In this document: piece after piece, positions 1-58,145 of the stretch
How positions within the stretch are numbered: position 1 is the stretch's first letter
Layout of the letters: every line of letters starts with the position of its first letter
Source: a phage
Reading direction: 5' to 3' (one strand)
Length of the DNA stretch: 64,000 nucleotides
Assembly: GCA_012490745.1 (NCBI GenBank)
Contig: GCA_012490745.1_3925.1
Position numbers and translations under genes: made by a program
The notes under the pieces: generated by a model
Seen by the model: only the letters and a program-made list of their open reading frames with translations
The model's database searches: none
Told to the model about the DNA's origin: nothing

Positions 1-84
1 GTACTTTACAAGGGGCTTATAGTTCGATAAAGTAAGCCCCAGATAAAGAGCTTTACCACTAAATCCTAAACTGGAGATTCAAAA
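1..84 (+). promoter_or_regulatory. Intergenic cassette family A: hairpin ggggcttat...taagcccc, then conserved leader agataaagagctttaccactaaatcctaaactGGAGattcaaaaATG
   Basis: Near-identical copies at 1675-1760, 2472-2557, 2807-2891 and a variant at 598-689; SD GGAG 8-9 nt before ATG; TTTACA-17nt-TAAAGT promoter-like spacing overlaps the hairpin. Confidence 0.6.
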
Positions 85-597
85 ATGAAAACTGTAGACG
101 CTACCTTTGAAGTTGTAAAAGAAAAATTTTCCATCATTTACGAAGCAGTTAATTGCTTTGAAGCAAGCCATAATCTTGATAATTGGGAATTTACAGATGA
201 CCATCAAGGCGGTGTGACGATTAAAAATCCTAGCTGTCAGCGTAATGAATTTAAATATGCAATCCCTTTACATTACAGCCTTAAACAGCTTTCAAGTGAC
301 TATGCAAAACAAGGCCGGGAAAACCCATCAAAAGAGGCTTACATCAGCTTACAGAAAGAACTAGAAAGAGATTTAGAGGCTTCAGAATATAACATCGCCG
401 CGAAAGTTGTAGATGCAAACGGTAGCACGGTTTTAGAGAGTTTTTATATTGGTTATGCTTTCGATTGGTGCTATCATGACGGCGATGATTTAGAGGATAG
501 ACTAAAAGAAGAGGTGAACAACGCAGACGCAGAATCTGAAGTATTAGAACGTTTGGAATCGTTGAAAGACTCAGTGATGAATATCTTTAAGAACTAA
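85..597 (+). CDS. hypothetical early protein (170 aa)
   Basis: ORF directly behind cassette with SD GGAG; acidic protein. Confidence 0.6.
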   Translation: MKTVDATFEVVKEKFSIIYEAVNCFEASHNLDNWEFTDDHQGGVTIKNPSCQRNEFKYAIPLHYSLKQLSSDYAKQGRENPSKEAYISLQKELERDLEASEYNIAAKVVDANGSTVLESFYIGYAFDWCYHDGDDLEDRLKEEVNNADAESEVLERLESLKDSVMNIFKN

Positions 598-689
598 ATA
601 GATTTCTTTACACGGGGTTATCAGACTGATAAGATAGCCCCAGATAAAGAGCTTTATTCAAATCAACCCTTAAACTAGGAGATTCTAAA
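598..689 (+). promoter_or_regulatory. Cassette family A variant (hairpin ggggttatcagactgataagatagcccc plus conserved leader)
   Basis: Shares agataaagagcttta...ctaaactaGGAGattctaaaATG with the other cassettes. Confidence 0.55.
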
Positions 690-986
690 ATGAAATTATC
701 AAATCAAGTGCGTGAGAATCTGAGCAAATTACTCAACAAAATTGATTTCATTGAAACATCAAGGAATAGTCATGATGTTATGGAATGGTTACACGGCAAA
801 ATAAAAGGCCGTCGTGTAGTGATTTGCTTATGGAACAGTTGCAGGGAGTATAAAAAACCTGTATTGCAAGTCAATATCTATGATGATACTTTTAAAAGCC
901 CTGTAAAGTCTAAAAACGACTTATTAGAATCCTATGAGATAACTGTAAGTGGCAAAGTATCACGTAAAGAGGAAACACCATGTTAA
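690..986 (+). CDS. hypothetical early protein (98 aa)
   Basis: ORF behind cassette, SD GGAG. Confidence 0.55.
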   Translation: MKLSNQVRENLSKLLNKIDFIETSRNSHDVMEWLHGKIKGRRVVICLWNSCREYKKPVLQVNIYDDTFKSPVKSKNDLLESYEITVSGKVSRKEETPC

Positions 987-1312
987 TGACTGGTATCACT
1001 GCAATCATTGCCATTTTCGCGCTATATAAGGCATATAAAGCCTATAATCTAGCAAATAAGGCAATCACACAGCAGGTTAGAAATAACCTTGTAGAGAGCT
1101 TTCTAGGGCGTCTCAGTGATGAGCAAATAAAGCGGCTAGAGATGAGCTTCAGATACAAAGCGAAAACCTATCAGATAAGTGACATCTTCAAAGATAATTT
1201 TCAGTTAGTTGATGATTATAATTCTCTGATAAATGCTTTAAATGTCAGTGACTTAAAAGACTACTACGCTGTAATTGTTCAAGAGTTGAGCAAACGAAAA
1301 CAAAACTGTTGA
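980..1312 (+). CDS. hypothetical early protein (110 aa), N-terminal hydrophobic segment
   Basis: ATG overlaps upstream stop (translational coupling), SD agaGGAaa; start could be ATG at 986. Confidence 0.5.
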   Translation: MLMTGITAIIAIFALYKAYKAYNLANKAITQQVRNNLVESFLGRLSDEQIKRLEMSFRYKAKTYQISDIFKDNFQLVDDYNSLINALNVSDLKDYYAVIVQELSKRKQNC

Positions 1313-1401
1313 CACTGGTTTTTAGATAGATTAAATTACACATCAACGGGGAGGGAATGACCTTCCCCACTAAATAAAGTCCTAAACTGGAGATTCTGAA
1401 A
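1309..1401 (+). promoter_or_regulatory. Cassette family B: TTGACA-17nt-TAAATT promoter, 5'UTR hairpin ggggagggaatgaccttcccc, conserved leader and SD
   Basis: Sigma70-like -35/-10 spacing; copies at 2170-2267 and 3745-3825 (latter has ttgtca). Confidence 0.6.
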
Positions 1402-1674
1402 ATGTATACTACTAACAACGGTCGCACCTTAAATGTCACCTTGCGTCACTATGTAGACGGTGTGATGTGCTTTGAAGATTTACGGGCTGAGCAACACATC
1501 TTAAATTGGCAAGTTGCAGGACTCCAAAAAACTGCTACAGGATACGGGAAAAAGATTCCAACCAGTTGGAAAGTACACTACGAAGGACGTTTGCGCAGAA
1601 TTTATCAGGATGTGCAAAGCAATAGCGCATCGAGTTACATTATAGTAAAAGGCAAAAAACTGCATTTAATGTAA
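1402..1674 (+). CDS. hypothetical early protein (90 aa)
   Basis: ORF behind cassette B. Confidence 0.55.
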   Translation: MYTTNNGRTLNVTLRHYVDGVMCFEDLRAEQHILNWQVAGLQKTATGYGKKIPTSWKVHYEGRLRRIYQDVQSNSASSYIIVKGKKLHLM

Positions 1675-1760
1675 AGTACTTTACAAGGGGCTTATAGTTC
1701 GATAAAGTAAGCCCCAGATAAAGAGCTTTACCACTAAATCCTAAATTGGAGAACTTAAAA
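1675..1760 (+). promoter_or_regulatory. Cassette family A copy
   Basis: Near-identical to 1-84. Confidence 0.6.
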
Positions 1761-2165
1761 ATGGCTATTAATAACCGTGAATTATCAATTTTAAAAGCAC
1801 GTTTGACCGTTAACCGGATTAATGTTATCACGTCATCAGCACCAGATGAAACACTGCAAAACATTATTGGGAAGATTCAAAGTGTTATCTTAGACGTTGA
1901 AAGCGTAAAAAATTCATTGGCTGACGTTGCAGCAGGTATCACACTAGACGGTGCGCAATATGAAATGTCCGACATGTTAGGCAAATCTAAGGTAATGAAT
2001 AAAGAGTTAGATTTGAAAATGTTCCGATTTGCTGTTAAAGTGTGGCTATCTGTCGAGTATGATGCTAACTTTGCAATCGCTGACTTTTTCGCCACTTGGT
2101 TGCAGCGTAATTTGACTAATCATGACTTCCGCGATATCTGTGATGCAATTTATGCAGAACTCTAA
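1761..2165 (+). CDS. hypothetical early protein (134 aa)
   Basis: ATG at 1761 sits at the conserved cassette position; the ORF-track start 1746 is a TTG inside the cassette. Confidence 0.55.
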   Translation: MAINNRELSILKARLTVNRINVITSSAPDETLQNIIGKIQSVILDVESVKNSLADVAAGITLDGAQYEMSDMLGKSKVMNKELDLKMFRFAVKVWLSVEYDANFAIADFFATWLQRNLTNHDFRDICDAIYAEL

Positions 2166-2169
2166 AAAA

Positions 2170-2267
2170 ATTTTGTTGACACTGGTTTTTAGATAGATTA
2201 AATTACACATCAACGGGGAGGGAATGACCTTCCCCACTAAATAAAGTCCTAAACTGGAGATTCAAAA
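2170..2267 (+). promoter_or_regulatory. Cassette family B copy
   Basis: TTGACA at 2175 plus 5'UTR hairpin, near-identical to 1309-1401. Confidence 0.6.
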
Positions 2268-2471
2268 ATGGCTATTATTAATGGTTTAACCATTGAAACT
2301 ACACACATCAAAGATATCAAAGTTGGCGATATAGTCCTTTCCCACGGCGTAGAAAAAACTGTCACTGCAAAGGATATCAAAGAGGATTCTTTCATGGGTA
2401 GGACTCTCTTCGGTGATTCTTATTGCTTAGGCTATCTTGCAGTTTTAAAAGTTGTCAAAAATAACAAATAA
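2268..2471 (+). CDS. hypothetical early protein (67 aa)
   Basis: ORF behind cassette B. Confidence 0.5.
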   Translation: MAIINGLTIETTHIKDIKVGDIVLSHGVEKTVTAKDIKEDSFMGRTLFGDSYCLGYLAVLKVVKNNK

Positions 2472-2557
2472 AGTACTTTACAAGGGGCTTAAAAGTTGAT
2501 AACTTAAGCCCCAGATAAAGAGCTTTACCACTAAATCCTAAACTGGAGATTCTAAAA
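2472..2557 (+). promoter_or_regulatory. Cassette family A copy (hairpin loop variant)
   Basis: Stem ggggctta/taagcccc conserved, loop differs. Confidence 0.55.
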
Positions 2558-2806
2558 ATGATGAACTACTTTAACATTCCCGATACCTGTAGATTATTGA
2601 CACAAGAAGAAAATTTGGGTAAACCTTTCATTTACCACATGCCAGATAACACGGCAAAAACTTATAGTTACAATGTTAACCGTTTCACCGCATACGCTGC
2701 AAAGAACGGCTATAGGTTGGTTACTCAAAAAGTAATGCTGGTTACAACTGCTGGCGAGATTCCTACAGTTGCAGTCAAACTAGTTTTCTCAAAGAAAGTT
2801 AAATAA
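2558..2806 (+). CDS. hypothetical early protein (82 aa)
   Basis: ORF behind cassette A. Confidence 0.5.
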   Translation: MMNYFNIPDTCRLLTQEENLGKPFIYHMPDNTAKTYSYNVNRFTAYAAKNGYRLVTQKVMLVTTAGEIPTVAVKLVFSKKVK

Positions 2807-2891
2807 AGTACTTTACAAGGGGCTTATAGTTCGATAAAGTAAGCCCCAGATAAAGAGCTTTACTACTCAATCCTAAACTGGAGATTCAAAA
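2807..2891 (+). promoter_or_regulatory. Cassette family A copy
   Basis: Near-identical to 1-84. Confidence 0.6.
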
Positions 2892-3434
2892 ATGAAATGT
2901 TATCACGGAACTACTCAAGAAAATTTCCTCAACCTGATTAATAACGGTGATAAACCATCAGGCGCATGGAATTGTTCGGATATGGACGGCAATTTTTACG
3001 TGTATCCAGAAAATAAAATCTATGGCGACGATGATGAAGAGATAACATCGGAGGGCATTCAGCAAGCTCTAGGGAACGCCACTATTACGGCGGCCTTCCA
3101 GATGAAAACCCAAAATATTGTTATCTTAGAACTCGATATTCCAGATGATGAGCTAAATGATGATTATTCTTGTGATAATATGTCGAGTGTAGCAAGTTTT
3201 ACAGAGTACTTTGATGTAAACTGGATTAAAAAGGTCTATACAACAGAGTTTAACGCTATGTATTCGCCTTTTTGTCTTCCTTCACTGGATAACCCAAATA
3301 TGAACTATCTTGATGAGACATTAGAACTACTTGCTAAAAGTGTTCAACAGTCGGACAGTATTCAGGTTTTTTGTGACATCATGGATACACTGACAGGAAA
3401 CATCGCAGAAGAGGATTTAAAGAGCTTTTTCTAA
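2892..3434 (+). CDS. hypothetical early protein (180 aa)
   Basis: ORF behind cassette A. Confidence 0.55.
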   Translation: MKCYHGTTQENFLNLINNGDKPSGAWNCSDMDGNFYVYPENKIYGDDDEEITSEGIQQALGNATITAAFQMKTQNIVILELDIPDDELNDDYSCDNMSSVASFTEYFDVNWIKKVYTTEFNAMYSPFCLPSLDNPNMNYLDETLELLAKSVQQSDSIQVFCDIMDTLTGNIAEEDLKSFF

Positions 3435-3466
3435 AAACCTATGCAATCACCTTATAAACACTATTT

Positions 3467-3486
3467 AGCCCCTTACAGGGGCTTTT
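3467..3486 (+). terminator. Rho-independent terminator-like hairpin agcccctt-aca-ggggct followed by T run
   Basis: GC stem plus tttt downstream of the 2892-3434 stop. Confidence 0.5.
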
Positions 3487-3500
3487 GGGAGGCTTAAATC

Positions 3501-3734
3501 ATGCTTACAACCGTTTACCTCATCCTTTCTATTTGTAACGGTCATTCATGCGATTTTAAAGGGCTTGAAGAGTTTACAGGAAGTAAAGAAAATGCTATTC
3601 AAGTTTGCCAGATAGCAAGACAAGACTATCCCGCTAGTGATGATATACAATGTTACTTTAAGACAGAAGATGAAGACGGTATCTATTTTGACAGCGTAGA
3701 TGGTCAGTATGAAATTATCATTGAAAAAGACTAG
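3501..3734 (+). CDS. hypothetical early protein (77 aa)
   Basis: ORF with SD gGGAGG; Cys-containing small protein. Confidence 0.5.
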   Translation: MLTTVYLILSICNGHSCDFKGLEEFTGSKENAIQVCQIARQDYPASDDIQCYFKTEDEDGIYFDSVDGQYEIIIEKD

Positions 3735-3744
3735 ACAAGCCTGA

Positions 3745-3825
3745 TAAAAATCTGTAAATTGTCAATCAACGGGGAGGGAATGACCTTCCCCACTAAGTAC
3801 AATCCTTAAACTAGGAGATTCAAAA
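3745..3825 (+). promoter_or_regulatory. Cassette family B copy (ttgtca variant)
   Basis: 5'UTR hairpin ggggagggaatgaccttcccc plus conserved leader. Confidence 0.5.
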
Positions 3826-4167
3826 ATGGCTTATGTAACCGTAATTACCGATAAAGAAAATTCATCTTGGTCAACTCAAGTAAGTGATAAGATGTCACCT
3901 ATGCAGTGCCTAAAATACTTTGAGCAGTGGAACAAAGGCGAGGATGTCAGCCCCTTTCAAGTGATGCAAATCATCCATACAGATAACGAAGGGAATAAAA
4001 CGGTTTTAAATAGTGAGTACTACGCAAGCCGTTTTGAAACTAGAAGTAAAACAATGAAGCTTTTACGTGAATCCGGTTATGCCCATATCGCCGCGCTAAT
4101 CTGGGATGACCTGCTAAAAAGACAGCGTATCAGCTATGTAAAACCTGAAAAAATATTCATCAGTTAA
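3826..4167 (+). CDS. hypothetical early protein (113 aa)
   Basis: ORF behind cassette. Confidence 0.55.
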   Translation: MAYVTVITDKENSSWSTQVSDKMSPMQCLKYFEQWNKGEDVSPFQVMQIIHTDNEGNKTVLNSEYYASRFETRSKTMKLLRESGYAHIAALIWDDLLKRQRISYVKPEKIFIS

Positions 4168-4189
4168 TCAATAACTTACAAAAAACTTT

Positions 4190-4386
4190 TAAAAAAGTGT
4201 TGACAATACCCATTGACATTGGTAACTTTGTTCGAGGGGGTTATCTAAAAGGGATTCACTTAAAAGATTCTTTATAGATAAGCTTAAAAAATTGCTTGCA
4301 ATCAGCTATCAAAACAAGTAAATTACTAATCAACGGGAGGGATGACCTCCCCACTAAATAAAAATCCTTAAACTAGGAGAGTCAAA
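4190..4386 (+). promoter_or_regulatory. Composite region: tandem TTGACA boxes (gttgacaatacccattgacattgg), hairpin gggagggatgacctcccc, conserved leader
   Basis: Two -35-like hexamers 14 nt apart, then family C cassette (taaattactaatcaacgggagg...). Confidence 0.5.
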
Positions 4387-4917
4387 ATGAACAAGTTTAA
4401 AGCTATCAACTTCATTCGTTCAAATGCTGTAATGTCTAAGCCTGTAAAAGATACATATGAATTCCGTTGTAATGGGGTACATTTCGCAACAATCACCAAA
4501 TCAGAAAACGGGGCTTATTACGTTCATCGTCGTAATGTCTCAACCGTTGTAGTCTCTCACTTTATGCAAGCTGTAGCGGAATTATTACCGTTATTCTTAG
4601 AGATTTATCTAGATGAGTGTAAAAACGTTCACAACCACGTTAAAAACCTTTTAAACGGTTATAAAATGGCTTATGAACGTTCTATCAAGTCACTAAACAA
4701 GTTTTACAATGCACCTGCAAATACTGTTTCAATGGCTTATGATGTAAACGGTGAGTTAGTTAGTCTCTTTAAAGTGGAAGAAATTAAACTGTATAATTTA
4801 CGTCCTAGTGGTTACTCTAAGACTCTTGGTGAAGGTTTAACGTTCAATATCAAGAACTTAGAAAAAACTTTAAAAGATATTGAAAAAGATATTGACGAGA
4901 CAATCAAAAGTCTGTAA
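4387..4917 (+). CDS. hypothetical early protein (176 aa)
   Basis: ORF behind cassette, SD aGGAGa. Confidence 0.55.
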   Translation: MNKFKAINFIRSNAVMSKPVKDTYEFRCNGVHFATITKSENGAYYVHRRNVSTVVVSHFMQAVAELLPLFLEIYLDECKNVHNHVKNLLNGYKMAYERSIKSLNKFYNAPANTVSMAYDVNGELVSLFKVEEIKLYNLRPSGYSKTLGEGLTFNIKNLEKTLKDIEKDIDETIKSL

Positions 4918-4982
4918 ATTACTAATCAACGGGAGGCGATAACCTCCCCACTAAATAAAACCCTTAAACTAGGAGATTCAAG
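4918..4982 (+). promoter_or_regulatory. Cassette family C (taaattactaatcaacgggaggNgatNacctcccc...ctaGGAGattcaaNATG)
   Basis: Copies at 4310-4386 and 5247-5311. Confidence 0.55.
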
Positions 4983-5246
4983 ATGGAAAACGTAGAATTA
5001 ACCACACTTTTACAAATTGCAACCGACAAAGAAGATGTAGCATTATTTCACCGTATTGAAAGTGATTTGTTCAATGGTGAAATCATCAAAGAATCTTACG
5101 AAGTTGTCGGATTCAAAGATGGTAAAGCGTTTGGCTTTTTTGACCTCGATAAAGGCAACGCTGTTACAAAATATGATGTTTTATCTTGTGAGATTCTTAC
5201 AAAATACAACGAAAAAAGGCTTGCAACATACGCCAATATGCAGTAA
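4983..5246 (+). CDS. hypothetical early protein (87 aa)
   Basis: ORF behind cassette C. Confidence 0.5.
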   Translation: MENVELTTLLQIATDKEDVALFHRIESDLFNGEIIKESYEVVGFKDGKAFGFFDLDKGNAVTKYDVLSCEILTKYNEKRLATYANMQ

Positions 5247-5311
5247 ATTACTAATCAACGGGAGGGATGACCTCCCCACTAAATAAAACCCTTAAACTAG
5301 GAGATTCAAAA
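5247..5311 (+). promoter_or_regulatory. Cassette family C copy
   Basis: Near-identical to 4918-4982. Confidence 0.55.
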
Positions 5312-5560
5312 ATGGCAACTATCCGCGCTACTGTTAACGAGTTCGGTTTTTCCTCTCTGGATGTTAAATTTGACATTGCAGGCACTGATAACGCCTTTGA
5401 AATGGTGAAATGTCTTATCAGTCAGACCATCAAAGACTATAATCCTTCGGATGAGTTCTGGGAGGAAACAAAACAAGAAGTTCTCAAGGATGGTTATACT
5501 TATCACTATTGGGGAGAAAAAATCGTCTCCCTGTACTACAACAAACAAGATTATAACTAA
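5312..5560 (+). CDS. hypothetical early protein (82 aa)
   Basis: ATG at the conserved cassette position; the ORF-track start 5267 reads through the cassette. Confidence 0.55.
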   Translation: MATIRATVNEFGFSSLDVKFDIAGTDNAFEMVKCLISQTIKDYNPSDEFWEETKQEVLKDGYTYHYWGEKIVSLYYNKQDYN

Positions 5561-5598
5561 TCGACGCAGCGGGGCTATTTAGCCCCAGATACCCTAAC

Positions 5599-5623
5599 AG
5601 CCCCTATTTAAAGGGGCTTTTTT
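5599..5623 (+). terminator. Rho-independent terminator (agcccct-attta-aaggggct + ttttt); a second hairpin at 5571-5586
   Basis: GC stem-loop followed by T run after the last early gene. Confidence 0.6.
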
Positions 5624-5625
5624 AC

Positions 5626-7236
5626 GTCTATCGAATCCTTATACAATCCCTTTCCCTCACCTTTCCAGAATCTTATCAGACCTTAAAAGCAATAACTCTA
5701 TAGTCTACTCTATAACCTCTTATCAAATCAACTTAAATATAAGCCCATAACCCGAAAGGGAAGGGCAACCCCTTAAACGCTCTATAACGCCCTATAACAG
5801 CCTTATCAACCTAACTTAAGGGGTTGCATTAACTCACCCTAAAAAGCCCTTCCTAGAGCTTCCTAGAACCTTAAAAGAATCTTATAAGGGTGTAAGCTTT
5901 ATTATCTCGTTAGCTATCTTGTGAACTACTAAACAAGCCCCTTGATAGTAACTGAAAAGTATGTTATAGGGGCTATAAAGTTACTTCAAAGTTGCTTAAA
6001 AGTTACGTAAATGCTAGCCCCCTTAACATTTTCTTAACAATTTCTTAACAAACCCTACATAGTTATGCTTTTAAGGCACTTGTTAGCAACTTGTTAGCCC
6101 CTTGTTAAATCTCTGTCAAGACCACGTAAAAGCCTTGTAAGAACCTTTGACATAGTCTTTAAAGCCCCTGTAAAGCCCTATAAAGAGGTATCTGTACAGT
6201 TGGGGTGTAATTACTAGGAAGAGGCTTAAAAGAGCTTACAAGGGGCTATAGAGAGCTTTTAAGAGGGCTATTTAGAGAATCACTAAGAAAGAGAGGGAAC
6301 GATAAGAAAAGAGATAGTGACCATGTTAATAGCTTGTTAAAAAGATTAAACACTTGTTAGAAACTTGTTAATTATCTTAACAAAATAACTCTTAAAAATT
6401 AACTTGTTAGCTCTTGTTAGTCATCTGTTAAGACTCTGTAAAGACCATGTATCGTCTGTTAAGAAACTGTTAAGCCCTTGTTAGTTATGTTAAGAATCTG
6501 TTAAGACCTCTGAAGAGATGTTAAGAGATTGAGAGAGTTGTTAAGAGATTGTTAAGGATATTTTAAAATTCTGCAAAGTACTTGTAAGGGAGCTGTTAAG
6601 GGCTACCAAGCAGATATACATCTTCTACAGATATTTTTCAGTTCCTTCAAAGACCCTAAAAAATGACTTGATAGTCCTATTTTATAAAAATTTTAAAAAT
6701 CTGAATAATTACCTATACAGTCTTTCTAAAATACAGGTAATAACAGGCTTATAAGATACCTTGTTAGTACCGTGTTAGACCTTGTGAGATAAGGTCTGTA
6801 AAGATATTCCTGTTAAGTTTGTTAAAACAGTCTATATAGAGGCTTAGTAGCACCTAGTGAACACCTATAGAGAGTATCATAGCTGACATAATGGGTTACT
6901 GTTAAGTAACACAGATAACCTAGAGATTAAGAGGTGTATAGGAGCTTCTAAGAGAGTGTAGAGAGATGGTTAAGGTGATTGTATAGGTTGTTAAGAAGGC
7001 TTGTTAGAAGAGTGTTTAGAGGGCTATTTAGAAGGGCTATACAGAGGGCTATTAAGACCACTAGATAGTTACTAAGATACTATATAGTACTATATAACTA
7101 TATAGAGAGTAAGATTAAGAAGGTTGTTAAGAAGGGTAGATATTTTATTCACATATGATGGTGACCCAGAGGTTGGGACAACCGATAAAATTTTACTCAA
7201 TAAAAAGCCCCCGATTAAGGAGGCTCTTAAGATATT
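5626..7236. repeat. ORF-free region dense in short direct repeats (CTTGTTAG / CTGTTAAG / TGTTAAGA and GGGCTAT(T/A)(T/A)AGA families)
   Basis: No ORF of 60 aa or more on either strand in the track; dozens of 7-9 nt repeat copies, clustered at 6000-6600. Confidence 0.7.
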
Positions 7237-51973: not shown

Positions 51974-53074
51974 TTATTCGTAATCTCGAATAACTAACCC
52001 AACAGGGAACTGTAAAGAACCCTTACGAGTCATCTTCTGGAACTGAACAGTTAAAGGTTTCCCGATAAACTCTTCAGGATGTTCAGCAAGATACTGTTTC
52101 TTCTCATGAGTAGTCTTCCATGAGACATCTACAAAGACGTTAGGAAGAGTCTCTACGACGAACTTACCATGACCACGTTTATCAGTCTTTACACCAGTTA
52201 CTTTAAACTCTTCAGTGTGCATCTTCTTGTGCTTAATCAAGAAGTATGAACGGTGACAACACTCATAGAATGAGTCTTCAGAGATTGAACGGTACATTGC
52301 ACCTTCAAACTTAGCCTCAACCCACTTATCATGAGCTTCATCAAATTCTTCCCAAGAGTTCACACGGATAGTCTGTACAGGAACCACTCTACAGGTATCA
52401 CCAAGCTCAACAATGGGTGAATTATCAATAACTTCACGACGCTCAGGCCAAGATTTTGAATTGTCACAGATATCATACCAGTAGAATTTAAGAAGGTGGC
52501 GGTCTGGATTGTCAGCATTCTTAATCATAGAGACAATATCTTCTAAGTCCCAACCATGAGCATAAATCTCACCATCAAAGTCTTCAACTTGTGGATGTAA
52601 TTTAAGCAACAAAAGCAAATCTGGAATTAGTTCTGCTGGAACGTTGTAAACAGTATTCTCACGAGAATAAGCCGTGAAGTTAACTAAATCAGCATCTCTT
52701 GAAATTCTACAACGGACACCATCAAGTTTTGGTTGAGCATCAGCAGGGAACTTCAGATACTTTGCATGACTAACCTTTGCAGCATCATGAGCAAGCTGTA
52801 CACCTACCTTCTCAGTATTCTGTGCAGATTCTTTTGTGTAAGCATAACCTTTACGGTCAACTTGCTTTTTATACTTAGCAGCAACTTCAAAGAGAGCTTG
52901 CTGTTCAGCATTACGCTCATTCTTTTTACCGATGTTTTTAGGTTCTGCTGTATACTCTTCAAACATCATCTTGCCATTTTCTTTACCATAGGTTGTAATA
53001 ACTTTGTCACCTACAGCGACACATGACCAGACGTTAAAAGAGCCATCTTTATTTTGTTTGTATAGAATTGTCAT
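51974..53074 (-). CDS. ATP-dependent DNA ligase (366 aa)
   Basis: Adenylation motif I KLDGVR (Lys-x-Asp-Gly), motif IV-like FEGAMYR, motif V-like FLIKHKK. Confidence 0.8.
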   Translation of the reverse strand: MTILYKQNKDGSFNVWSCVAVGDKVITTYGKENGKMMFEEYTAEPKNIGKKNERNAEQQALFEVAAKYKKQVDRKGYAYTKESAQNTEKVGVQLAHDAAKVSHAKYLKFPADAQPKLDGVRCRISRDADLVNFTAYSRENTVYNVPAELIPDLLLLLKLHPQVEDFDGEIYAHGWDLEDIVSMIKNADNPDRHLLKFYWYDICDNSKSWPERREVIDNSPIVELGDTCRVVPVQTIRVNSWEEFDEAHDKWVEAKFEGAMYRSISEDSFYECCHRSYFLIKHKKMHTEEFKVTGVKTDKRGHGKFVVETLPNVFVDVSWKTTHEKKQYLAEHPEEFIGKPLTVQFQKMTRKGSLQFPVGLVIRDYE

Positions 53075-53079
53075 TCAAA

Positions 53080-53637
53080 TTACCTTAGCATGTGTGATTT
53101 TACTGGAATAAAGATACCAAATTGTGAGACTGCTAAATCAGATAGTGACATACACTGTTCAGGTAAGTACACAAAAACCCCTGTGTAGAAGTCTATAAAA
53201 GAACCATCATCTTGTTTGCAGGCTAGTTTTCCATAACCATAGTTGTACAACTTTAATGAACCATCATCATACTTTAAGTAGTTCTTGAACTGAACATTAA
53301 AAGCATATTCAGAGAACCTTGTGTACAGGTCATAAAGCAATCCAATACTGTCGTCGACTATTGCTACACCAAACTTTTTACAAACATCTACATAGTTTTT
53401 GTATAATTTATTATGATTTTCAGGTGTTGCAAAGTTTGTATACCAATGTTCTAAGATAGATAACTTAATTGGCTGATTTTTAGAATATTCTAATACCTTC
53501 ATGTCATACCAAGATTTCCTAAGTCTGACATCATCTAGCCTTAAATTTTGAGACACTTCGCGGAAGTTTTTGATGATTATATTTCTGCGCCTATTGTCAA
53601 TCATAATCAATCCTCTGAGTGATACCAAGTATTGCAA
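53080..53637 (-). CDS. hypothetical protein (185 aa)
   Basis: ORF. Confidence 0.5.
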   Translation of the reverse strand: MQYLVSLRGLIMIDNRRRNIIIKNFREVSQNLRLDDVRLRKSWYDMKVLEYSKNQPIKLSILEHWYTNFATPENHNKLYKNYVDVCKKFGVAIVDDSIGLLYDLYTRFSEYAFNVQFKNYLKYDDGSLKLYNYGYGKLACKQDDGSFIDFYTGVFVYLPEQCMSLSDLAVSQFGIFIPVKSHMLR

Positions 53638-54269: not shown

Positions 54270-54401
54270 GATAATCTACCTCTCTGTATGTTTTTAAATA
54301 GTGAGTGATGAGTTCTGGTAATTCACTACGTTTAACGTTTGAACGAAGAAGTGTCCAGTCAAAACCTTTACCAACCCTCCCCCAGAGACTGTACATTTTC
54401 T

Positions 54402-54635
54402 TCATAGCAACTCCAGAATATCAATACGTTCACCTTTGAGTGCTCCAGTACGGTCTTTTGCAATCTTCCCTTCAACAATAAGAATGTGTGCAGACCTTAA
54501 AGTGTCACTGTTAAAGGCTTTTACGAACTTGCTAGGCATCACTACAATACACATCTCCTGAATCAACTCTGGAGTATAGCAGTTGTCGTGAAGTTGCTGA
54601 ATAACGTCTGCAAGTGTCATTTTTGATGTCTCCAA
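54402..54635 (-). CDS. hypothetical protein (77 aa)
   Basis: ORF. Confidence 0.45.
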   Translation of the reverse strand: METSKMTLADVIQQLHDNCYTPELIQEMCIVVMPSKFVKAFNSDTLRSAHILIVEGKIAKDRTGALKGERIDILELL

Positions 54636-54826
54636 TATTCAATATCTACAAGTTCTTGTGCAATGCTTTTCAGATTACCTTTCAAGAAAACCTTCTCAGA
54701 ACCTGAAAGAGATGAATTGTCAATTAACCTGTTCATCCTCTCAAATAACTTCTGCTTACGGTTCTTAATAGTTTCCTTTGAAGCACCTTTCATCATCGCT
54801 GCATGGGTTCTTCCACGGTGGCTCAT
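54617..54826 (-). CDS. hypothetical basic protein (69 aa)
   Basis: ORF. Confidence 0.4.
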   Translation of the reverse strand: MSHRGRTHAAMMKGASKETIKNRKQKLFERMNRLIDNSSLSGSEKVFLKGNLKSIAQELVDIEYWRHQK

Positions 54827-54877
54827 AAGCCCTCCTATACAAGATGTAGTATAAGGTACTCTTCCATGAGCACCTTG

Positions 54878-55405
54878 TCAACTTAGTTTTGCAAACTCTC
54901 CGTGGAGTTTCATAGCAGCTTCACAGTAAGCTTTATGGGCTTCTTCAGGTGTATCATAGTAGCCTAAGTACATCTTTTTACCTTTATAACTTATTTGTGC
55001 AACCCACCTACCAGACTTCTTCTTCAGGCTTACACCTTTATAACCTGATTTATTGGTGGATAGCTTGCTTTTATTCCAAGCGCTTTGGCAGTCATCTGCT
55101 TCTCTTAGGTTTACAACCCTGTTATCAAGGGAGTCTCCATTAACATGGTCAATGATACCTCTCGGCAACCTACCATACACGTACAGCCATGCGAGTCTGT
55201 GCGCTTTATGTGCTTTCTTATCAAAGTAGATGGTAACCTGCTTATGACCAGTTGAGTCAATCTGGATACTCCCCGCTATCTGTCCTGCGTACTGACTATT
55301 AAAGACCTTAACAGCCTTTGAGTCGCCCTCTCTACGAAGCCAAGTAAAGACCCCTGTTTCGGGGTCATAGTGTAGTAGTTCCTTTAAACGTTCTTGTGTA
55401 ATCAT
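54878..55405 (-). CDS. HNH homing endonuclease with C-terminal AP2-type DNA-binding domain (about 175 aa)
   Basis: HNH region HRLAWLYVYG...IDHVNGD..DNR..NLR; AP2-like YKGVS...GRWVAQISYKGKKMYLGYYDTPEEAHKAY; internal Met start avoids overlap with the polymerase stop. Confidence 0.75.
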   Translation of the reverse strand: MITQERLKELLHYDPETGVFTWLRREGDSKAVKVFNSQYAGQIAGSIQIDSTGHKQVTIYFDKKAHKAHRLAWLYVYGRLPRGIIDHVNGDSLDNRVVNLREADDCQSAWNKSKLSTNKSGYKGVSLKKKSGRWVAQISYKGKKMYLGYYDTPEEAHKAYCEAAMKLHGEFAKLS

Positions 55406-55415
55406 TTTGTCACCA

Positions 55416-58145
55416 TTAATGCACTTCCAACCACGATTTACCAACCTTACCAGTACCAGTTACCAGTGTTTCACTCTTTAGTCCTAAGTTCTTAGAGGCT
55501 TGCCCGTAATACCAATCAGTGACAGCCTTCACCTCTGCCGTCATACTTTCTGGACATTCCCAACTCGTCTCATCGTGATAGGAGCACAATAAACGAGCAC
55601 CTATAGCTGGTTTGCGACCGTTCAACTTCATCAAACCTTCGTCAATCATACGACGGCAAGCAAGGTTAATTGCCTCGTTCTGAATCTGACTTTCCGAACC
55701 CATGAGCAAATAATTCAATAACTTATGTGGAGATTTACACCACAACCAAGCTCCAGCAACCTTTACAAAACCCCCTTTAGAGATTGCAGCGGTCTTACCA
55801 AACACCTCTTCAAGTGCCTTTTTAGTCGCTTTGTAGTCAGCTTCCAAGTCATCTAACAGCTTCTTAATTTTAGGCAAACGTATAAAGTAAGTCTGTTTAG
55901 TCAGCGCACCTTCCTGAGTAGTCGCAGCTTTAATCGTCTTAGCAAACTTCTCATCACCTGCACCAAACAGCAGTGCATAGATACCATTCTTAGCTTTCTT
56001 ACGACCTTTGCTAATCTCATGAAGAAGATTCTCATCCTGAGTAGCTCGACAAGTCAAGATGTCCTGCTCATCATTCAAGCTAAAGTAAATACTGTTCAGT
56101 GTATGTGCATCAGTCCCTGAATAGACAACGTACAGGTCATTCTCAGAGTCATAGCGAAGGTACTTATCAATCTCTGGGTTGAGGTACTCATCAAAGTGTT
56201 TGCAGTAATAGCGTCCATCTTCTTGACGAATGAACTCAATTTCTTCTTTACCTTGCGTCACCGCTTTGGTGAAGTCTTTGTCACCCATAAAGTTACAAAG
56301 AAGAACTAGCTGGGCTGAGTTCATGTCTACAGAGACGACGTTAGTACCTTCTTCACAAATCCACACTGCCCTCATTGGTTCCCCATAGACAGCAGCACCA
56401 GACGGTACGTTTACAATACCATATTGTGTCATACGTCCAGTTGAAGTACCAAACACCATTGCACCAGCACTAAGGCGACCATCAGGACGAATCTGGTTCA
56501 ACCAACCTTTTTCATCATCCTTTGAGTTCTCAATAGTTCTACGTCGGTGCATCAAAGTATAGTATTTAGCAATCTTCTGTCCAAGCTCGCCTTCAATCGT
56601 ATCATAAGATGATTCAGTAAGTTTTGGTGAAGTACGGATTAAGCAAGGCTCAAGCAAATCTGTGTACTTCTTCACAGACCAGTTATGCTCAATGTACTGG
56701 ACACCTTCATGTTCAACATAACTCAAGCCACACCGTTCAACCATCTCCTGCCACTTAGGATGCTTTGTAATCATCTTTTTGTTGTCTTTGAAACGACAAA
56801 CTTTGACAGGGCGACCATCTGAGTCTTTCTTGTAGTTCCAGTCATCTGGAATCCAACCAACTGATTTCAAGTAGTCTTTAACAACTGCTACCTGAGTCAT
56901 ACGAGAAACTTCGAACTCAATTGGTGTATATGGTGCATCAATCAATCCTGTGTAGCGACTTGACTCAAGTTCAAAGTGGTTAACAACATGGCTGTTATAG
57001 TACTTCACAGTTTTAACAGTTTTTACTGGCTTCCAGTCTTTGCATTTCTTACCAATCTTTGCATTCAACTCGTTGCAAATTGCACGGGCATCCTTCATTG
57101 CTACAAAGCCTTCCTTGTACTCTTCACCAGTTACAGAGTTGGTTGGTGTATAGCAATTTCTCTTTTCAATGTTAAAAATCTTTGTAGTTGGCTTACCAAA
57201 TGGCTTGATTTCGTATGTCTGCATCTCACCGTTACGTACCTGCTGACGATACTTTGTTTTAGGGTACTTGGTAATTCTCTTCAGTCCATCTGCATGACCG
57301 AATGTTTCAACATACTCATTCCAAGCTTTTGCAAACTCTTCTCCAGTGACTTTACCTTTGGTCTTAATAGTTGGAGGTAGATGTGGTTCAACCTCTGAAG
57401 CAAGCTCATTAGTCAACTTGTCAAGTTCCTTTACATGGAACTCCATAAGCTCTTTATCAGCTTTCCAGCCATTGATAGCTTGTTGACTCATCCAGAAAGA
57501 TGTTTCTTTAGCTCGCATGTAGGTTTCATAAGTGTCTATGCCACACTTCTTAAGCTTGAGATATTCATTATCAAGTGCCCGTTTAGTTTTGGCGTTAATA
57601 CGGATATCTTCTACAACACGAGTGAAGATTTCTGCATTCCACACACCCCAATGTTCAATCTCTGGTTTACGAACACCGACACGAGCGCCCCATGCAGCCA
57701 AACCATGAGCACCTTTATAACCCTTTGGAGTTGGTCTATCCATCCACTGAACACGAGACTGGATAAGAGAATCCTGAAAGAAATTACTCCACGGTTTACA
57801 CTTTGGATTATCAAAGTTCCACAAATCAGGTGCAATGTGATTGAAAACCCACCAGTCATAACCGAGACCATTATGGATGCAAAGGCGTTTTGCCTTTAAC
57901 GCAAACTCAATACCTTCACGTAAGCCACCCTTAATGTACTTGGTATACTTGTGACCGAGGATAGGCTCATCTGTAAAGACCCATACAGGTGGCTCTTCAT
58001 CGTCAGATTTATAGTCTGCGAAAGCCATTACGTGCACTTTAGTGAACTCAAGGAGTAAACCATCAGTTTCTGTATCACCAACTAAATGTAAGTTTTTAAA
58101 ATCTATGTTTTCCATTTTTACTCCCTCTAAAATCATTAACCTCAT
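55416..58145 (-). CDS. DNA polymerase, family A, with 3'-5' exonuclease domain (909 aa)
   Basis: Exo I VGDTETDGL; Pol A motif A-like SVDMNSAQL, motif B K..KNGIYALLFG, motif C YHDE. Confidence 0.9.
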   Translation of the reverse strand: MRLMILEGVKMENIDFKNLHLVGDTETDGLLLEFTKVHVMAFADYKSDDEEPPVWVFTDEPILGHKYTKYIKGGLREGIEFALKAKRLCIHNGLGYDWWVFNHIAPDLWNFDNPKCKPWSNFFQDSLIQSRVQWMDRPTPKGYKGAHGLAAWGARVGVRKPEIEHWGVWNAEIFTRVVEDIRINAKTKRALDNEYLKLKKCGIDTYETYMRAKETSFWMSQQAINGWKADKELMEFHVKELDKLTNELASEVEPHLPPTIKTKGKVTGEEFAKAWNEYVETFGHADGLKRITKYPKTKYRQQVRNGEMQTYEIKPFGKPTTKIFNIEKRNCYTPTNSVTGEEYKEGFVAMKDARAICNELNAKIGKKCKDWKPVKTVKTVKYYNSHVVNHFELESSRYTGLIDAPYTPIEFEVSRMTQVAVVKDYLKSVGWIPDDWNYKKDSDGRPVKVCRFKDNKKMITKHPKWQEMVERCGLSYVEHEGVQYIEHNWSVKKYTDLLEPCLIRTSPKLTESSYDTIEGELGQKIAKYYTLMHRRRTIENSKDDEKGWLNQIRPDGRLSAGAMVFGTSTGRMTQYGIVNVPSGAAVYGEPMRAVWICEEGTNVVSVDMNSAQLVLLCNFMGDKDFTKAVTQGKEEIEFIRQEDGRYYCKHFDEYLNPEIDKYLRYDSENDLYVVYSGTDAHTLNSIYFSLNDEQDILTCRATQDENLLHEISKGRKKAKNGIYALLFGAGDEKFAKTIKAATTQEGALTKQTYFIRLPKIKKLLDDLEADYKATKKALEEVFGKTAAISKGGFVKVAGAWLWCKSPHKLLNYLLMGSESQIQNEAINLACRRMIDEGLMKLNGRKPAIGARLLCSYHDETSWECPESMTAEVKAVTDWYYGQASKNLGLKSETLVTGTGKVGKSWLEVH

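Follow-up and report, generated by a model that had tools for sequence, protein, structure and literature searches.

A probably functional, recently mobile HNH-AP2 homing endonuclease gene behind the DNA polymerase gene of a Felixounavirus phage

Is the small open reading frame (ORF) that follows the DNA polymerase gene (pol) of this phage a selfish element that still moves between genomes, or a resident gene of another kind? The question was raised by a 64,000-nucleotide (nt) stretch of phage DNA (NCBI GenBank assembly GCA_012490745.1, contig GCA_012490745.1_3925.1), the whole of which is called the window here. An earlier interpretation made from the letters alone (the sequence-only reading) had placed at 54878-55418 an HNH endonuclease with an AP2 domain that starts about 10 nt from the polymerase stop codon, and had taken it for a selfish homing element adjacent to the polymerase that may mark a recent insertion. 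We conclude, with a probability of about 0.75, that a free-standing homing endonuclease gene (HEG) of the HNH-AP2 type, functional and recently mobile, lies after pol of a Felixounavirus. The source phage belongs to this genus (FelixO1/wV8-like myovirus): a 2.6-kb query around the locus matched 262 phage records, with Escherichia phage SP22 as the top match (94%). All genes in the HNH-AP2 region are oriented on the minus strand, and the features on which the argument rests are as follows.

54878..55405, minus strand: free-standing HNH-AP2 homing endonuclease gene, 175 amino acids (aa); ATG 55403-55405, stop TGA 54878-54880
55416..58145, minus strand: family-A DNA polymerase gene (Pfam DNA_pol_A), intron-less here, conserved essential neighbour; stop TAA 55416-55418
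55406-55415, minus strand: spacer from pol stop to HEG ATG, exactly 10 nt, TGGTGACAAA, with Shine-Dalgarno-like GGTGA
55073..55156, minus strand: HNH beta-beta-alpha-metal core, residues 84-111, with D86-H87 (general base), N95, N99 (central Asn), S108 and N111
54899..55048, minus strand: AP2/ERF-type DNA-binding domain, residues 120-169

The coordinates of the sequence-only reading were borne out, with the minus strand now added, its gap of about 10 nt was measured as exactly 10 nt, and its domain assignment was confirmed by database matches far beyond chance. Pfam HNH_3 covered residues 67-103 (E=3.1e-13, 49.6 bits, cut-off 24.8), Pfam AP2 covered residues 120-169 (E=7.5e-14, 52.2 bits, cut-off 33.3), and PHROG 99, 'HNH endonuclease', was matched at E=7e-72. 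An AlphaFold2 model built on 69 homologues gave the 175-aa protein a mean predicted local distance difference test score (pLDDT) of 94.7. In this model, strands 84-87 and 100-103 followed by helix 105-110 form the predicted beta-beta-alpha-metal core, and strands 125-128, 133-140 and 143-150 with helix 153-167 form an AP2 fold, that is, the C-terminal three-stranded sheet packed on a helix that is expected of the HNH-AP2 family. When the model was compared with the PDB by Foldseek, I-HmuI (1U3E) ranked first and plant AP2 domains next, and the GCC-box domain of AtERF1 (1GCC) superposed on it with a root-mean-square deviation of 1.1 Å over 51 columns. A sequence search of the PDB with the single protein returned AP2 domains only (WRI1, TEM1 and ERF1); the relation to I-HmuI needed a profile, which was made from 30 family members and matched 1U3E at E=3e-8. 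The family is represented in 3570 phage records (tblastn) and by 3689 proteins at E<=1e-10 in a metagenomic protein database, and close homologues at the same position are already annotated in GenBank as 'HNH homing endonuclease' (SP22, Mushroom ('AP2/ERF domain') and ASO1A). With its I-HmuI-like nuclease core, the element fits the HNH-AP2 homing endonuclease family as a typical representative.

Regarding its setting, the start at TTG 55444 given by a mechanical ORF list was rejected: it overlaps pol, and both the relatives (528 nt in SP22) and public gene calls use ATG 55403-55405. The polymerase has 909 aa when read from the first ATG and 899 aa in gene callers (start 58115). An Rfam scan of 54300-56100 produced no match at E<=1, and therefore no intron or non-coding RNA is tied to the HNH-AP2 gene here; since the ORF begins only beyond the pol stop and pol itself is one unbroken reading frame, the endonuclease is free-standing, neither embedded in an intron nor placed in frame in a host protein as intron- or intein-encoded endonucleases are. 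Neither tblastn nor blastn detected a paralogue of the gene in the 64-kb window.

The distribution of the gene among relatives provides the first line of evidence for mobility. Using the pol C-terminus as a probe, we retrieved 29 related IMG/VR loci, in which the pol stop was followed by an HNH-AP2 gene (15/29), by nothing (12/29) or by other genes (2/29, both distant). In GenBank, an 80-nt probe spanning the empty junction matched 153 records: at least 95 of them contiguously and hence empty, including wV8, KhF1-3 and UAB_Phi87, and the remaining 58 with the right half only, under genes annotated as HNH endonuclease, and hence occupied. The sequence-only reading had named a gene present in all relatives, with no empty site, as the outcome that would speak against it; both collections contained empty sites. 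The two features that define the boundaries are given below.

54882-55415, minus strand: insertion cassette, 534 nt, in place of which empty genomes have the 6-nt TTAGTA (junction alignments)
54827-54881, minus strand: right-junction element, 55 nt, TTGACA + 9-bp stem-loop (AAGGTGCTC/GAGTACCTT) + TATACT + Shine-Dalgarno sequence, before the next gene

Occupied genomes had inserts of 481-534 nt, as against 5-6 nt in empty genomes. In the latter, TTAGTA (TAGTG in two genomes) comes directly after the pol stop, and then the invariant TTGACAAGGTGCTCATGGAAGAGTACCTTATACT...TATAGGAGG-ATG, and in the former every allele finishes in ...GAGTTTGCAAAACTAAG, joining the common TTGACAAGG. The right boundary, where ...AAACTAAG meets TTGACAAGG, is the same in every allele, and empty genomes read CACTRA-TTAGTA directly before TTGACAAGG. 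A good empty counterpart is KhF3, which matches the window at 96% identity in either flank. The locus therefore shows the presence/absence polymorphism at a precise site that is expected of a homing gene. The right-junction element is nearly invariant in relatives, occupied and empty alike, and its TTGACA is overlapped by the TGA stop codon of the HEG. At a guess, it might act as a phage promoter in which a hairpin is embedded; a sigma-70 scan around the gene gave counts not above those of shuffles and did not call the element, because its TTGACA-TATACT spacing is 22 nt.

The second line of evidence comes from the end of pol, where one short segment travels with the endonuclease.

55416..55439, minus strand: last eight pol codons, GKSWLEVH and stop, synonymously recoded and co-inherited with the HEG allele; candidate target/immunity segment

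All carriers of the window's allele had these last 24 nt in identical form (100%), identity to every other genome was 58-83%, and the recoding left the peptide unchanged, GKSWLEVH (or ...Y...). From 24 to 300 nt upstream, pol was 96-100% identical to that of L005, an empty-site locus, and of L003, which carries another allele. When association with the HEG was scanned column by column, an analysis that ignores phylogeny and whose carriers span four alleles, the strongest link was found at 55419 (CAT in 13/14 carriers, CAC in 13/13 empties; mutual information (MI) 0.81 bit) and the second at 55430 (TTG/TAT versus CTT; T in 14/14 carriers, C in 11/13 empties; MI 0.68 bit). CTT->TTG at 55428-55430 and CAC->CAT at 55419 are candidate immunity changes. 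The mean association reached baseline by ~300 nt upstream in pol and stayed flat out to 1500 nt, and the co-conversion flank comprises the last ~300-450 nt of pol.

Third, comparisons of whole loci revealed signs of recent transfer. The exact 175-aa protein was found on five independent public contigs, always after pol, and one of them (L116) is identical to the window across 6.5 kb. Two metagenomic contigs, L117 and L115, diverge from the window at 2.2% and 1.5% of compared positions, respectively, and carry mismatch-free tracts centred on the HEG: 852 nt in L117, from pol -313 to 11 nt beyond the HEG stop, and at least 1008 nt in L115, from pol -450 up to a scaffold gap. These were the longest identical runs in both comparisons (runners-up, 293 nt in L117 and 518 nt in L115), and the expectation of an 852-nt identical run at 2% background is ~e^-17. 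It should be noted that the loss of the neighbouring 69- and 72-aa genes in L115 was only apparent, as the scaffold gap consists of Ns. The tracts look as homing with co-conversion would predict, and they support the suggestion of a recent insertion; on this comparative evidence, the co-conversion and horizontal spread expected of a homing gene were found. The description of the gene as a selfish homing element adjacent to the polymerase is likewise supported by the empty sites, the nucleotide-precise boundaries and the co-inherited pol flank.

The same site is used by more than one endonuclease. Five HNH-AP2 allele classes, mostly 40-55% identical to one another at the amino-acid level, were found at the identical position, the L019 allele being 75% identical to the class of the window, which includes SP22 and phiSUSP1-like contigs and whose allele occurs in ~55 GenBank records of varied backgrounds. 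The 10-nt spacer is identical among allele-1 carriers. Within the genus only these divergent nuclease alleles, and nothing else, colonize the site, a pattern that matches the 'interchangeable cognate HEGs' known from phage HEG islands (PMC10448857). DNA identity between alleles, measured as codon-aligned sliding identity, was mostly 30-60% (locally up to ~80% for L019) and rose sharply in two patches.

54878..54937, minus strand: shared 3' end of the ORF, HKAYCEAAMKLHGEFAKLS and stop; last ~60 nt with 93-100% DNA identity between alleles (L019, 89% in the last window)
55349-55366, minus strand: perfect 6-bp GC hairpin GACCCC-N6-GGGGTC inside the HEG ORF, codons D14-V19 (DPETGV), then TCTTTACTT

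The second patch comprises ~30 nt around this 5' hairpin and is 93-97% identical between alleles (70% for one). The hairpin was present in 19/19 occupied loci and in all five alleles, with invariant stems and five loop variants; it needs four specific synonymous choices, including the rare codons CCC and GGG, and is mostly absent from homologues outside the genus that have the same peptide motif. It occurs once in the window, was the sole terminator-like match of the region in a terminator scan, and leaves the ribosome-binding site unsequestered. Folding of the 5' messenger RNA was no more stable than that of shuffles (z=-0.95), the 6-bp hairpin alone being robust. As its stems show no compensatory changes, it could be an attenuator, a protein-binding site or a gene-conversion/recombination patch.

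Whether the enzyme is functional depends on its active site, in which most expected residues are conserved. D86, H87, N99, R101 and N111 were invariant across the 69 homologues. In the profile alignment with I-HmuI, D86/H87 correspond to D74/H75, N99 to N87, S108 to N96 and N111 to N99. The catalytic His at the end of the first strand is preceded by an acidic residue (D86-H87), as is expected of HNH_3 domains, and the invariant N99 occupies the place of the central Asn, which in I-HmuI (N87) orients the general base (PMC2816704). The metal-ligand position, nine residues after the central Asn in the first helix turn, holds Ser108 rather than Asn or His.

55082-55084, minus strand: Ser108 codon, aligned with I-HmuI N96

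The spacing of the usual ligands is illustrated by N118/H127 of ColE9 and N311/H320 of HpyAV (PMC2816704), and an Asn or His metal ligand in the helix is the general rule (PMC5714182, PMC2699513). This column is Asn in 72/79 IMG/VR family members and in 61/69 database homologues; Ser is confined to the clade of the window, comprising its allele and a sister allele. The clade also has a specific Asp104-Asp105 (T104D/x105D), giving 'READD[CFY]QSAWN' against the consensus 'REATxxQNxxN', and the window protein keeps N111 (N99 of I-HmuI). In the clade, pairwise ratios of nonsynonymous to synonymous substitution rates (dN/dS) were 0.10-0.18 overall and 0.06-0.13 in the HNH domain, even at dS>1. The endonuclease gene is under strong purifying selection and shows no decay.

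On the basis of these results, we propose the following course of events, known as intronless homing with co-conversion, a process that is well established (PMC2988022, PMC3984707). The HEG would share its transcription with the replication genes and have a ribosome-binding site of its own, the GGTGA after the pol stop. In a mixed infection with an empty-site relative, the presumably monomeric enzyme would bind through its AP2 and N-terminal domains and nick or cut the empty allele where pol ends, within or close to its final ~25 nt and the pol-intergenic junction, with a predicted position at ~TGGCTTGARGTWCAC-TRA-TTAGTA. Repair by recombination with the occupied genome as template would then transfer the 534-nt cassette and, along with it, the recoded end of pol and as much as ~300-450 nt of that gene. 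Carriers would escape cleavage, since in them the site is interrupted by the cassette and the end of pol bears synonymous changes. Cutting at a distance from the encoding gene is known for free-standing phage endonucleases, some of which target intron insertion sites (PMC2988022, PMC3984707). Here, the pol intron site shows neither HEG association nor a sequence difference, and the tail/junction is split and recoded; for this reason the latter appears to be the best candidate target.

Several points weigh against such a conclusion. That Felixounavirus HNH-AP2 proteins, this one included, cleave DNA at all is inferred, and the same holds for catalysis, strand specificity and target position. 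The presence of Ser108 at the metal-ligand Asn position could mean that catalysis is weakened or altered. Furthermore, the HEG-pol association scan takes no account of phylogeny, the independent identity tracts number two, and the genomes are generally mosaic, so that ordinary recombination could in principle yield both tracts and linkage. With regard to Ser108, the strength of purifying selection and the signs of recent spread make a functional variant possible. Specifically, Ser108 together with Asp104-Asp105, one turn earlier, could constitute a functional, re-wired 'H-N-S/DD' HNH site with altered metal use or strand specificity, and the hairpin might serve as an inbuilt attenuator, or as a GC-rich site bound by the AP2 domain of the protein itself, and so limit expression of the nuclease. 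We offer this combined proposal tentatively and consider it rather unlikely as a whole.

The best surviving alternative to a functional homing endonuclease is that the nuclease has been impaired or retired by the exchange of Ser for Asn and no longer cuts, its DNA binding having been co-opted (for example, for regulating the adjacent promoter-like element or the replication genes) and its spread being passive, through general recombination. This would explain Ser at a near-invariant Asn position accompanied by the clade-specific T104D/x105D, and it agrees with the location of the gene directly upstream of the invariant TTGACA/stem-loop element and with the reported recruitment of HEG AP2 domains as regulators in other systems (PMC10448857); moreover, purifying selection shows that a function is kept, not which one. 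However, D86, H87, N95, N99, R101 and N111 are all intact, the HNH domain is the most constrained part of the protein, contrary to what a role in DNA binding alone would lead one to expect, this allele lies at the centre of the longest mismatch-free tracts of two genome comparisons, and the allele has reached its ~55 GenBank records in varied backgrounds. We therefore regard a retired nuclease as improbable.

A further alternative would treat the gene as passive cargo, carried by recombination at repeated promoter/stem-loop cassettes during a modular exchange of small early genes, with no endonuclease drive. The right boundary does coincide with the conserved TTGACA/stem-loop element, similar repeated cassettes exist elsewhere in the window, and the adjacent 69- and 72-aa genes also vary in presence, order and copy number. 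On the other hand, the junction element itself is unrepeated in the window, the left boundary lies inside the pol coding tail with its allele-specific synonymous recoding, the gene encodes a conserved nuclease under purifying selection, and five divergent members of one nuclease family, and nothing else, occupy the site within the genus. Passive carriage thus seems highly unlikely.

The variable neighbours and the repeated cassettes deserve description in their own right.

54617..54826, minus strand: 69-aa gene (phrog_5180), function unassigned, downstream of the HEG; presence and order variable in relatives

Together with the 72-aa gene (phrog_4230), it makes up the segment 54402-54826 (minus strand), which varies among relatives L005-L019: the 69-aa gene is missing in L005, L006, L010 and L012, the order of the two genes is swapped in L013-L015 and L019, and in L008 a duplicated 72-aa gene flanks the 69-aa gene. 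This variation is modular shuffling independent of the endonuclease. At the other end of the window, positions 1-6600 (plus strand) contain repeated intergenic cassettes of ~77-105 nt (for example, 1-90, 1676-1765, 2473-2562, 2808-2897 and 4318-4394), each composed of TTTACA, a GC-rich stem-loop (AGGGGCTTA...TAAGCCCC or GGGAGG...CCTCCCC), a conserved spacer and a Shine-Dalgarno sequence with ATG. They recur before successive small ORFs and are reminiscent of the T4-type promoter/stem-loop cassettes proposed to mediate gene shuffling; no transfer RNA genes were found in window positions 1-6600.

Finally, homing at a distance, in which the target would be the insertion site of the pol group I intron (~55969-55975) or another site hundreds of bases off, can be given very little credence: in relatives, pol does contain a group I intron, located ~555 nt before its stop codon and in some cases encoding an EndoVII-type HNH protein, and distant cutting by free-standing HEGs is frequent and collaborative homing documented (PMC2988022, PMC3984707), but the intron-site sequence is the same in intron-less genomes with and without the HEG, so that carriers would not be immune there, the HEG association is at baseline at 551-600 nt and beyond (mean MI 0.014), and the presence of the intron and that of the HEG are independent across loci. 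Collaborative homing at this site was rejected for lack of any sequence difference or association.

The intron is a second, independent selfish element in the same gene. At its position (55969-55975, minus strand) the window is intron-less, and several relatives have an insertion there: a group I intron of 274-317 nt (Rfam RF00028, 62 bits) in Mushroom (L004, 5206-5510) and L032 (2634-2917), and an 811-nt version with a 160-aa EndoVII-type HNH ORF in L027-L031 (1694-2505 in L027). The intron in these relatives accounts for 'split DNA polymerase' annotations in GenBank. Its HNH protein was considered as kin of HNH-AP2 and rejected, being of the unrelated EndoVII type. An apparent HEG remnant in Salmonella phage GE_vB_BS (L114/H100, MG969407.1, flagged UNVERIFIED) is almost certainly a sequencing error, because single-base indels and frameshifts run through pol too and not through the HEG alone. 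In addition, a 174-aa ORF without Pfam or PHROG match was observed at 53080-53604 (minus strand), directly upstream of the DNA ligase gene (51974-53074); it lies in a 536-nt segment absent from most relatives and is found in 16 phage records (KhF1-3 and Ro111lw at >=99%, others at 35-52%), and thus represents a rare accessory gene beside an essential one.

The class to which this HEG belongs is already well known, and nothing about it is categorically new; Felixounavirus genomes contain 2-6 such genes each (PMC8300805). What our analysis adds is the cassette boundaries, the occupancy census, the turnover of five alleles with allele-specific pol tails, the evidence for co-conversion, the Ser108 variant and the conserved hairpin. 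At a single site behind an essential pol gene, about half of a large genus carries one or another of at least five competing alleles, each with a recoded pol tail, which provides a clean natural case of intronless homing outside the T4 model with measurable co-conversion tracts. Felixounavirus phages serve in biocontrol and typing of Salmonella and E. coli, and in mixed infections elements of this kind give rise to recombination hot spots and marker exclusion; they also confuse polymerase-based phylogenies.

Among known systems, the closest relatives are the HNH-AP2 HEGs (Magnani et al. 2004, as cited in PMC10448857), which include the 'IPA-HNH' HEGs of Barth et al. 2023 and form group 2 of the His-Me finger classification (PMC5714182). 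Like them, the window protein combines an N-terminal HNH_3 core with a C-terminal AP2 domain in about 160-180 aa, and its gene is free-standing in a phage genome, variably present next to a DNA polymerase gene and exchangeable with cognate HEGs at one site; 29% of IPA-HNH HEGs adjoin DNA polymerase genes (PMC10448857). In contrast to the IPA-HNH proteins of ICP1, which are too divergent for Pfam HNH_3, it matches this domain well, and it differs from the family in having Ser instead of Asn at the metal-ligand position.

I-HmuI, the endonuclease of the SPO1 DNA-polymerase intron, is the closest solved structure by both profile and fold and shares the D-H...N...N core, the N-terminal beta-sheet region and the association with a phage DNA polymerase; it is monomeric (PMC2699513). 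It differs in residing inside a group I intron, in having a helix-turn-helix C-terminal module rather than AP2, and in having Asn96 in place of Ser108. I-HmuI nicks one strand, and nicking is therefore the default expectation for the window protein.

The HNH genes of the T3 gene 5.3 and T7 gene 3.8 type are likewise small and free-standing and lie in the replication module, and homology to T7 3.8 is detectable (32% identity over residues 64-174). The T3 gene, presumably located just downstream of the T3 DNA polymerase gene and targeting pol, belongs to a different phage family, and its case is tied to an intron insertion site (collaborative homing), against which the data argue here. Finally, the free-standing endonucleases of T4 (Seg proteins and MobE) also have genes situated between conserved genes and spread by intronless homing, being inherited with co-conversion of flanking markers and marker exclusion (PMC2988022, PMC2790892). 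Their architecture is different, either GIY-YIG or HNH with other C-terminal domains, and they usually cut hundreds of bases or more from their genes, whereas the strongest signal in the present case lies within ~25 nt of the insertion. Nevertheless, the decay of linkage along pol and the identity tracts around the HEG are what intronless homing of the T4 type predicts.

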